A DNA stretch of 64,000 nt from assembly GCA_036252695.1 (NCBI GenBank), contig GCA_036252695.1_4122.1, one strand, 5' to 3'. The notes beneath the pieces are model-generated. The model saw only the letters and a program-made list of their open reading frames with translations. It was not told the origin of the DNA and did not search any database. Of this stretch, positions 63,264 through 63,740 are shown piece after piece. Each line of letters starts with the position of its first letter. Position 1 is the stretch's first letter. This DNA comes from a phage. The translations under genes and the position numbers were made by a program.

Positions 63264-63740
63264 ATGATTCATGAACACCGAGGTAATCTGTTTGAATTAT
63301 TCAGTACTGTTACCGATGATCAAAATGCATTACATATTATTGCTCACGGATGTAATGCTCAAGGTAAGATGGGTTCTGGTTTCGCAAAGGAACTAAGGAA
63401 TCGCTACCCAATGGCATATGATGATTATAAAGCATATGAAAAGGAAATGGGATTTCTTAGAATTGGACAAATTGCATATTCAGCAATTAACGATAATTTG
63501 ATTATTGCAAACTGTATTACCCAAAAAATGTACGGTAATGACGGTGCTAAATATGTCAGTTATGATGCAATCGACGATGTGTTCAAACATCTAAATTATT
63601 TTTGTAAAGTTGATCGAGATGTTCATGTACATTTCCCGAAAATTGGAGCCGATTTGGGCGGCGGTAACTGGAACGTTATCAAAGAAATCATTGATCACCG
63701 TCTGGTCAATGCAGAAAAACACTTATACATTCTAAAATAA
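63264..63740 (+). CDS. macro-domain (ADP-ribose-binding/processing) protein
   Basis: HIIAHGCNAQGKMGSGFA at the position of the macro N..GGGV..A motif; C-terminal HFPKIGADLGGGNW resembles the second glycine-rich loop. Confidence 0.5.
   Translation: MIHEHRGNLFELFSTVTDDQNALHIIAHGCNAQGKMGSGFAKELRNRYPMAYDDYKAYEKEMGFLRIGQIAYSAINDNLIIANCITQKMYGNDGAKYVSYDAIDDVFKHLNYFCKVDRDVHVHFPKIGADLGGGNWNVIKEIIDHRLVNAEKHLYILK

Follow-up and report, generated by a model that had tools for sequence, protein, structure and literature searches.

Macrodomains that reverse the ADP-ribosylation of DNA by a toxin have been described from both bacteria and phages. The macrodomain of DarG2 (PDB 5M31/5M3I) and the chimallivirus protein PhiKZ gp104 (AdfM) both reverse the thymidine ADP-ribosylation caused by DarT2. 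PhiKZ gp104 has been shown to strip DarT2 ADP-ribose from a TNTC oligonucleotide in vitro and to rescue DarT2 toxicity, and it is needed for plating on DarTG2-positive hosts (PMC13309987). A transposon screen showed that tk.4, alone among T4 genes, is conditionally essential when the host carries DarTG2, and since a clean tk.4 knockout sensitises T4 to DarTG2 the gene has been renamed adfM (bioRxiv 10.1101/2025.11.20.689424). SCO6735 of Streptomyces coelicolor (PDB 5E3B) cleaves thymidine-linked ADP-ribose from DNA. It also rescues Escherichia coli from the toxicity of DarT, an enzyme that it binds and thereby inhibits (PMC9411070). In this work we have analyzed a gene for a stand-alone macrodomain protein at positions 63264-63740 of a 64,000-nucleotide stretch of phage DNA (contig GCA_036252695.1_4122.1, hereafter the window), whose product we place by homology among the proteins of the AdfM type.

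The window is DNA of an Asteriusvirus jumbo phage of E. coli, with 99.8% identity to vB_EcoM_G17 and Sharanji and 99.3% to 121Q. RefSeq already names the 121Q orthologue, gp544, "macro domain-containing protein", and "phosphatase" stands in other records. The gene is thus a new member of an abundant, already annotated phage family, the function of which has recently been established for other members. An earlier note on this DNA had predicted here a 158-amino-acid macro-domain protein with glycine-rich loops and its own ribosome binding site, set apart by a strong terminator, and these elements were all found in place:

63264..63740, plus strand: macrodomain gene, 158 amino acids, ATG start; orthologue of 121Q gp544; PHROG 335 / Tk.4-AdfM family
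63345..63380, plus strand: loop 1, H28-G-C-N31-A-Q-G34-K-M-G-S-G39, comprising the H-x-C-N motif and the first glycine-rich ADP-ribose-binding loop (homologue alignment)
63519..63524, plus strand: T86-Q87, with the glutamine where TARG1 (K84) and DarG (K80) have their catalytic lysine (homologue alignment)
63636..63665, plus strand: phosphate-binding loop P125-K-I-G128-A-D130-L-G-G-G134, the second glycine-rich loop (homologue alignment)
63254..63257, plus strand: Shine-Dalgarno sequence GGAG, 6 nucleotides before the ATG of the macrodomain gene, kept in five Asteriusvirus lineages
63224..63253, plus strand: terminator-like hairpin and T-tract, separating the macrodomain gene from the small gene before it (terminator scan)

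The hairpin itself (63224-63246) has a 9-bp G+C-containing stem and a 5-nucleotide loop, is followed by TCTTTTC and resembles an intrinsic terminator. Its stem is constant and its loop drifts across the five Asteriusvirus lineages, and in Klebsiella phage RCIP0023 the stem letters are changed with pairing retained; judged from this comparison the hairpin is a real, maintained structure. Just 5' of it, within the region 63216-63263, the phages WPEC5 and UE-S1 carry ATATAAATTA, which we take to be close to the T4 late-promoter TATAAATA; the window carries AATTTAAAATA instead. The element may be a phage-specific promoter of the macrodomain gene. A prophage or host copy of the macrodomain gene was ruled out for E. 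coli, no match having been found among 5,426 complete genomes.

Fold and active site of the macrodomain protein

That the protein has the macrodomain fold of ADP-ribose-binding hydrolases is in our judgment practically certain. The Pfam Macro profile (PF01661) aligned end to end, over positions 2-116 of 118, with 16.4 bits (E-value 0.009); the hidden Markov model search that the earlier note had advised thus gave only marginal support, with full coverage and a score under the gathering score of 22. For many homologues at 40-70% identity a PF01661 match is precomputed. Sequence searches of the PDB gave BT1257 of Bacteroides thetaiotaomicron (PDB 2FG1/2AFC; 1.3e-15), SCO6735 (1.6e-11), the yeast ADP-ribose-1''-phosphate phosphatase Poa1p (PDB 6LFQ; 2.7e-6) and DarG (4.5e-3). 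With a profile built from 46 homologues all four matches were strengthened, BT1257 to 2.9e-25 and Poa1p to 1.7e-14, and human TARG1 was added at 1e-8. The DarG macrodomain was the best match in NCBIfam (4e-8) and in PADLOC (1.2e-10).

The AlphaFold2 model of the protein has a predicted local distance difference test (pLDDT) score of 93.3 and a predicted template modelling score of 0.89. Foldseek matched it, with probability 1.00 and template modelling (TM) scores of 0.69-0.83, to BT1257 (the best, 0.83) and then to ADP-ribose-bound DarG, SCO6735, and Poa1p and TARG1 in complex with ADP-ribose; in a viral structure library the best fold match was Tk.4 of Acinetobacter phage 133 (TM 0.84). The model, the Foldseek matches and the conservation pattern agree in showing a three-layer alpha/beta/alpha macro fold with both glycine-rich ADP-ribose-binding loops. 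The family LOG, which the earlier note had named as a possible better fit, gave no match in the Pfam, NCBIfam, PADLOC, PDB or fold searches, and neither did any other unrelated family. With sequence, profile and predicted-fold evidence concordant, the protein is an ALC1/TARG1-like macrodomain.

Conservation was counted over the 46 homologues, and the active site was typed on a seven-sequence reference alignment (HMMER, MAFFT). No homologue of the 46 departs at H28, G29, N31, G39, T86, Q87, P125, G128, L131 or G133, and N31 is invariant through all seven reference macrodomains as well. The reference sequences fall into two groups. In the glutamine-type (Q-type) group, which comprises the window protein, T-even Tk.4, BT1257 and SCO6735, an H-x-C-N motif is followed by T/G-Q and then by P-[KR]-I-G; in the lysine-type (K-type) group, comprising PhiKZ gp104 and DarG of Mycobacterium tuberculosis and Thermus aquaticus, the corresponding motifs are T-V-N, P-T-K and P-P-L-G-x-x-N-G-G-L. 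The window protein has a glutamine (Q87) at the position of TARG1 Lys84 and DarG Lys80, together with the supporting asparagine (N31) and histidine (H28). Aligned to SCO6735, H28 corresponds to His24, G29 to Val25, N31 to Asn27, Q87 to Gln85 and G128 to Gly126. In SCO6735 the residues H24, N27, Q85 and G126 are needed for the hydrolysis of ADP-ribosylated thymidine in DNA; Asn27 locks Gln85 in place, both Q85A and Q85E are dead and N27S nearly abolishes activity (PMC9411070).

Other positions of the site vary. K88, next to the invariant glutamine, is not conserved among the homologues (E in 22, Q in 6, D in 4, N in 4, K in 3, H in 2). D130 (63651-63653) lies within the phosphate-binding loop and aligns with SCO6735 Gly128, a small residue that the window protein has thus not kept. 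At this position the homologues have D (19), G (17), V (6), A (2), E (1) or T (1), and its loop neighbours are fixed. Because position 130 varies while the rest of the loop does not, the side chain is evidently tolerated in the sub-family, to judge by the alignment, and D130 could tune specificity; a conserved catalytic role for D130 was ruled out by the same variation within the clade. Compared with Tk.4 the window protein has about 4 additional residues in the loop that follows Q87, and the Asteriusvirus/jumbo-phage sub-clade carries a longer conserved loop, Y-G-x-D-G-x-K-Y-V-S-Y-D.

The family is widespread, homologues having been found by tblastn in 2,131 of 50,697 phage records, the T-even tk.4 and Pseudomonas phages included. 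Between lineages of the clade dN/dS (the ratio of nonsynonymous to synonymous substitution rates) is 0.07-0.17 with dS up to 0.7, and the active-site loops are all identical as far out as a Klebsiella phage; these values point to strong purifying selection on the gene. Breadth and selection together show that the reading frame is no product of chance.

Proposed substrate and role of the macrodomain protein

Among possible roles we lean, by a narrow preference over all others together, towards that of an AdfM-type orphan, antitoxin-like hydrolase which would remove DarT2 ADP-ribose from phage DNA. This reading is the best supported because the protein shares PHROG 335 with Tk.4 and gp104 (1e-45 for the window protein, 7e-66 for T-even Tk.4, 8e-43 for PhiKZ gp104), has 30% identity to Tk.4 (BLASTP, E-value 7e-13), and is an orphan: it consists of a single 158-residue domain and its flanking genes have no Pfam match to DarT or to an ADP-ribosyltransferase (ART). 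It resembles the validated members further in being a phage-encoded stand-alone macrodomain whose top viral fold match is a Tk.4. E. coli itself harbours DarTG systems (PMC7003065).

Tk.4 is among the nearest of the functionally placed relatives. Like the window protein it is a phage stand-alone protein of about 155 amino acids with H-G-C-N and T-Q motifs and a P-[KR]-I-G-A loop, and both are nearest to BT1257 among solved structures. Unlike the window protein, Tk.4 has Gly at the position of D130 and the shorter loop after the glutamine; its gene lies in the T-even early region (tk-vs-regB), whereas the window gene comes after a terminator, on the border of a block of structural genes, and the role of Tk.4 is backed by a genetic phenotype whereas the window protein is placed by homology. 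SCO6735 is also of the Q-type, with the equivalent residues H24/N27/Q85/G126 and a long loop after the glutamine, and it too is an orphan outside any DarTG operon. It differs in being bacterial and DNA-damage-induced, in having K34, G128 and V25 where the window protein has Ser38, Asp130 and Gly29, and in its overall sequence (about 27% identity). BT1257 is the best match in both sequence and fold, with the same H-x-C-N and Q motifs; it comes from structural genomics, and as its function is unknown it says nothing about that of the window protein.

PhiKZ gp104 and the DarG2 macrodomain share with the window protein the macro fold and the conserved asparagine; their sites are of the K-type and that of the window protein is of the Q-type. 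The match to DarG is also far stronger for gp104 (9e-25) than for the window protein (4.5e-3). DarG2 carries in addition a C-terminal DarT-binding domain and has a cognate toxin, both absent here. Against the NCBIfam model of DarG2 (NF048014) the window protein scored 32.9 bits with a cutoff of 250, the macro part alone being aligned (profile positions 18-139 of 338), and T86-Q87 stands where DarG2 has its catalytic Lys80 in P-T-K. A true DarG2 orthologue was ruled out, the catalytic lysine, the C-terminal domain and a darT neighbour all being missing.

By analogy with these relatives the protein would act as a stand-alone, single-domain ADP-ribosyl hydrolase of the ALC1/TARG1-like class with a glutamine-type active site. 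The glycine-rich loops G34-G39 and G128-G134 would hold the diphosphate of ADP-ribose, N31 would lock Q87 in place, and Q87 would place the distal ribose for a water held by the backbone to break the ribose-base bond, as has been proposed for SCO6735. In an infected cell the triggered host DarTG2 system would let DarT2 ADP-ribosylate thymidines of single-stranded phage DNA and so block replication; the phage enzyme would remove these marks, possibly also bind DarT2, and replication would continue, which is the behaviour of an 'antitoxin mimic' of the AdfM type.

Several points weigh against this reading. The substrate and the role are transferred from relatives at about 30% identity (30% to Tk.4, 24-29% to SCO6735 and BT1257), the match to PhiKZ gp104 is local and covers 26 residues only, and the Pfam Macro score lies below its threshold. 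The substrate range of macrodomains is not readable from sequence (PMC9503650), and SCO6735 acts also on Glu/Asp-linked protein ADP-ribose (PMC9411070). Asp130 occupies the position at which the SCO6735 substitution G128E abolishes activity, the authors' argument being that the added negative charge repels DNA (PMC9411070), and the DNA-binding Lys34 of SCO6735 is Ser38 in the window protein. An anti-DarT factor would need early expression, whereas the gene follows directly after a terminator and no sigma-70 promoter was recognisable for it. The Sharanji genome paper is silent on the gene. Overall charge was considered as a clue to DNA binding and found uninformative, all three phage macrodomains being near-neutral to acidic, the validated ones included.

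Of the alternatives, an anti-defence hydrolase with another or a broader target survives best, although we regard it as clearly less probable than the AdfM-type role. Its targets could be RNA ADP-ribosylated by CmdT-type or other RNA-directed transferases, proteins, or ADP-ribose-derived immune signals. The activity of SCO6735 on Glu/Asp-linked protein ADP-ribose would accord with it, as would the two departures from the DNA-relevant residues of SCO6735 (D130 and Ser38) and the extended loop after Q87; E. coli has several ADP-ribosylation-based defences, e.g. CmdTAC (PMC11618068). As to RNA, one passage of a later study reports SCO6735 activity at RNA phosphate ends, but SCO6735 is inactive on 2'-OH RNA ADP-ribosylation, and the results section of the same study reports it inactive on 5'-phosphate-linked RNA and DNA ADP-ribosylation too. 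Where a member of the family has a phage phenotype, it maps to DarTG2. For the sub-clade in particular, the Q-type site, Asp130, the Ser in place of Lys34 and the longer Y-G-x-D-G-x-K-Y-V-S-Y-D loop leave some room, at a similarly low probability, for a substrate other than DarT2-modified DNA, either an RNA-linked or soluble ADP-ribose derivative tied to Sir2-cREC-Nudix RNA repair or the marks of an unrecognised host defence.

Somewhat less probable still is a Poa1p-like small-molecule enzyme, which would dephosphorylate ADP-ribose-1''-phosphate or deacetylate O-acetyl-ADP-ribose released by a Sir2/cREC/Nudix module of the phage, the Nudix enzyme then degrading ADP-ribose. The genes of this module lie elsewhere in the window:

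24743..25501: Sir2-like gene (Pfam SIR2, 3.6e-20)
25498..26049: Nudt16-like Nudix gene (7e-19)
26059..26379: cREC cyclic-phosphate-processing domain (1.8e-22)
26739..28178: PIN-PhoH reading (PhoH-like in the 121Q annotation)

They form a contiguous cluster (24743-28178), and the window also holds an RNA ligase, a polynucleotide kinase and a CCA-adding enzyme. Poa1p is among the nearest solved relatives by sequence, by profile and by fold; it is of the same class, its H-S-C-N resembles H-G-C-N, and its N-terminal half is similar. Iyer et al. predict that KptA-like sirtuins make ADPr>P in need of further processing and argue that phage macrodomains mostly target soluble ADP-ribose derivatives (PMC9503650, PMC7824862). 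Against this stand the residues: of the three Poa1p positions named in the titles of mutant PDB entries H23 alone is kept (as H28), K35 and G132 standing in place of S30 and F152; the family's invariant Q87 is a Ser in Poa1p; and the C-terminal half of Poa1p can barely be aligned by sequence. The macrodomain gene lies 37 kb from the Sir2 cluster, and the jumbo-phage Sir2 neighbourhood has been predicted to be an NAD-dependent RNA-end repair module with a KptA-like sirtuin that is not Macro-coupled (PMC9503650). The distributions differ as well, the Sir2 family being found in 975 phage records, with many T5-like and rV5-like phages among them, versus the 2,131 of the macro family, and T4 and other T-even phages having tk.4 without a sirtuin module. 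Finally, it is with DarTG2 that the T4 member of the family shows its phenotype.

The same observations bear on the claim of the earlier note that the macrodomain gene completes an ADP-ribose processing set with the sirtuin and the Nudix genes. The sirtuin and Nudix reading frames at 24743-26049 do exist, as does the Nudix gene at 62002, although the frame of the latter breaks after 21 codons. With the distance, the separate cluster, the differing phage distributions and the lack of Macro coupling (PMC9503650) we consider the set weakly supported. A metabolic link from ADP-ribose-1''-phosphate through ADP-ribose to AMP is a possible minority reading. Nor did we find support for the suggestion that the phage both writes and erases ADP-ribose marks, the tested members of the family acting on marks made by the host toxin DarT2.

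Two further explanations are very improbable. The protein might bind ADP-ribose without catalysis, or be an enzyme in decay, Asp130 blocking the phosphate-binding loop as does the aligned G128E substitution of SCO6735; the purifying selection, the invariance of the catalytic H28, N31 and Q87 and the free exchange of D, G, V, A, E or T at position 130, suggestive of a tolerated side chain, speak against it. Or it might erase the marks of a phage-encoded ART, for self-immunity or for temporal control of host take-over, as Macro-ART and Macro-sirtuin toxin-antitoxin pairs known in other phages would allow (PMC9503650), but no ART, DarT or sirtuin gene adjoins it. In 123 kb of 121Q neither an ART nor a NADAR protein is annotated, an absence that is uninformative as 'hypothetical protein' labels prevail there and remote ARTs could be hidden. 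A toxin-antitoxin pair with a neighbouring ART was rejected, the five small flanking genes having no significant Pfam match.

The frame break in the nudE-like gene and other features

The Nudix gene at 62002 contains a conserved break of its reading frame:

62002-62434, plus strand: nudE-like Nudix gene, split by a +1 frame break (break 62059-62068; extra C at 62065; stop of the upstream frame at 62089-62091)

Read from the ATG at 62002, the frame gives MRYSCGIIFYRDGQILIGHTT and ends at 62089-62091, while the Nudix box is encoded in the +1 frame; the annotated start of the gene is an internal ATG. Around the break, the sequence CAT ACA ACA C GGA CAG recurs in each of the five E. coli Asteriusvirus lineages that were compared, the DNA identity falling as low as 85%. 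The orthologues of Klebsiella phage RCIP0023 and Erwinia phage pEa_SNUABM_12 have no counterpart of the C at 62065 and their frame is uninterrupted; the conceptual +1 product matches the Erwinia reading frame in one piece over residues 1-137 with 79% identity. The predicted trans-frame peptide is LIGHTTGQNHWDLPK. All four variable sites in the upstream 63 nucleotides are synonymous third positions of the upstream frame, for which the chance expectation is about (1/3)^4.

At the break the frame reads the codon CGG, and it is the sole in-frame CGG: the codon occurs at none of the 11,454 codons of the long open reading frames of the window. Inside those on the plus strand CGG is found 31 and 62 times in the other two phases (93 in total). 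The next rarest codons of the plus-strand reading frames are AGG (11) and CCC (13). Seven tRNAs are annotated in the phage (Thr, Asn, Met, Arg, Gly and two Ser): tRNA-Thr(UGU) serves the preceding ACA, tRNA-Gly(UCC) serves the +1 codon GGA, and none decodes CGG. This arrangement fits a candidate hungry-codon programmed +1 frameshift; alternatively, the gene is N-terminally truncated or dead. A quadruplet-decoding tRNA was ruled out, the window containing no tRNA and the seven annotated phage tRNAs having ordinary anticodons, and a stimulatory RNA structure 3' of the break was not significant (z = -0.9).

Elsewhere in the phage, homologues of two translation factors are encoded in 121Q, a ribosome-hibernation factor of the HPF/RaiA kind (gp533, 7082-7414 of its segment) and IF3 (gp47, 33944-34447 of its segment); their presence points to a direct hold of the phage on host translation, maybe relevant to the proposed nudE-like frameshift. 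In the tRNA cluster of Sharanji (95373-95561) a 92-nucleotide tRNA-Ser (anticodon ACT) and a 90-nucleotide tRNA-Met are annotated, both unusual as annotated. A T4-style RNA repair set of RNA ligase, polynucleotide kinase and CCA-adding tRNA nucleotidyltransferase accompanies the sirtuin module within these 64 kb:

121Q gp438 (5598-6740 of the 121Q segment), gp443 (7837-8769 of the 121Q segment), both falling inside the span of the window, and window 60813-61925: loci of the RNA repair set

Two adjacent reading frames, at 59852-60268 (138 amino acids) and 60255-60677 (140 amino acids), have a common C-terminal motif, GTLP...[FI][IE]DDTFGID[FY]..YQ, and resemble tandem paralogues.

Of the two main subjects, the conserved break in the nudE-like gene is the more unusual observation, and a +1 break at an otherwise unused codon could be a simple case of programmed frameshifting in an auxiliary gene of a phage. 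As to the macrodomain gene, the anti-DarT2 reading extends an already published concept and opens no new one; its use would be in helping the prediction of host range. If it is true, a ready counter to DarTG2 would be present in the 121Q/PBECO4 group of giant E. coli phages, which are under consideration for therapy and biocontrol; phages would then have taken up two kinds of macrodomain, the glutamine type resembling SCO6735 and the lysine type resembling DarG, for one job.

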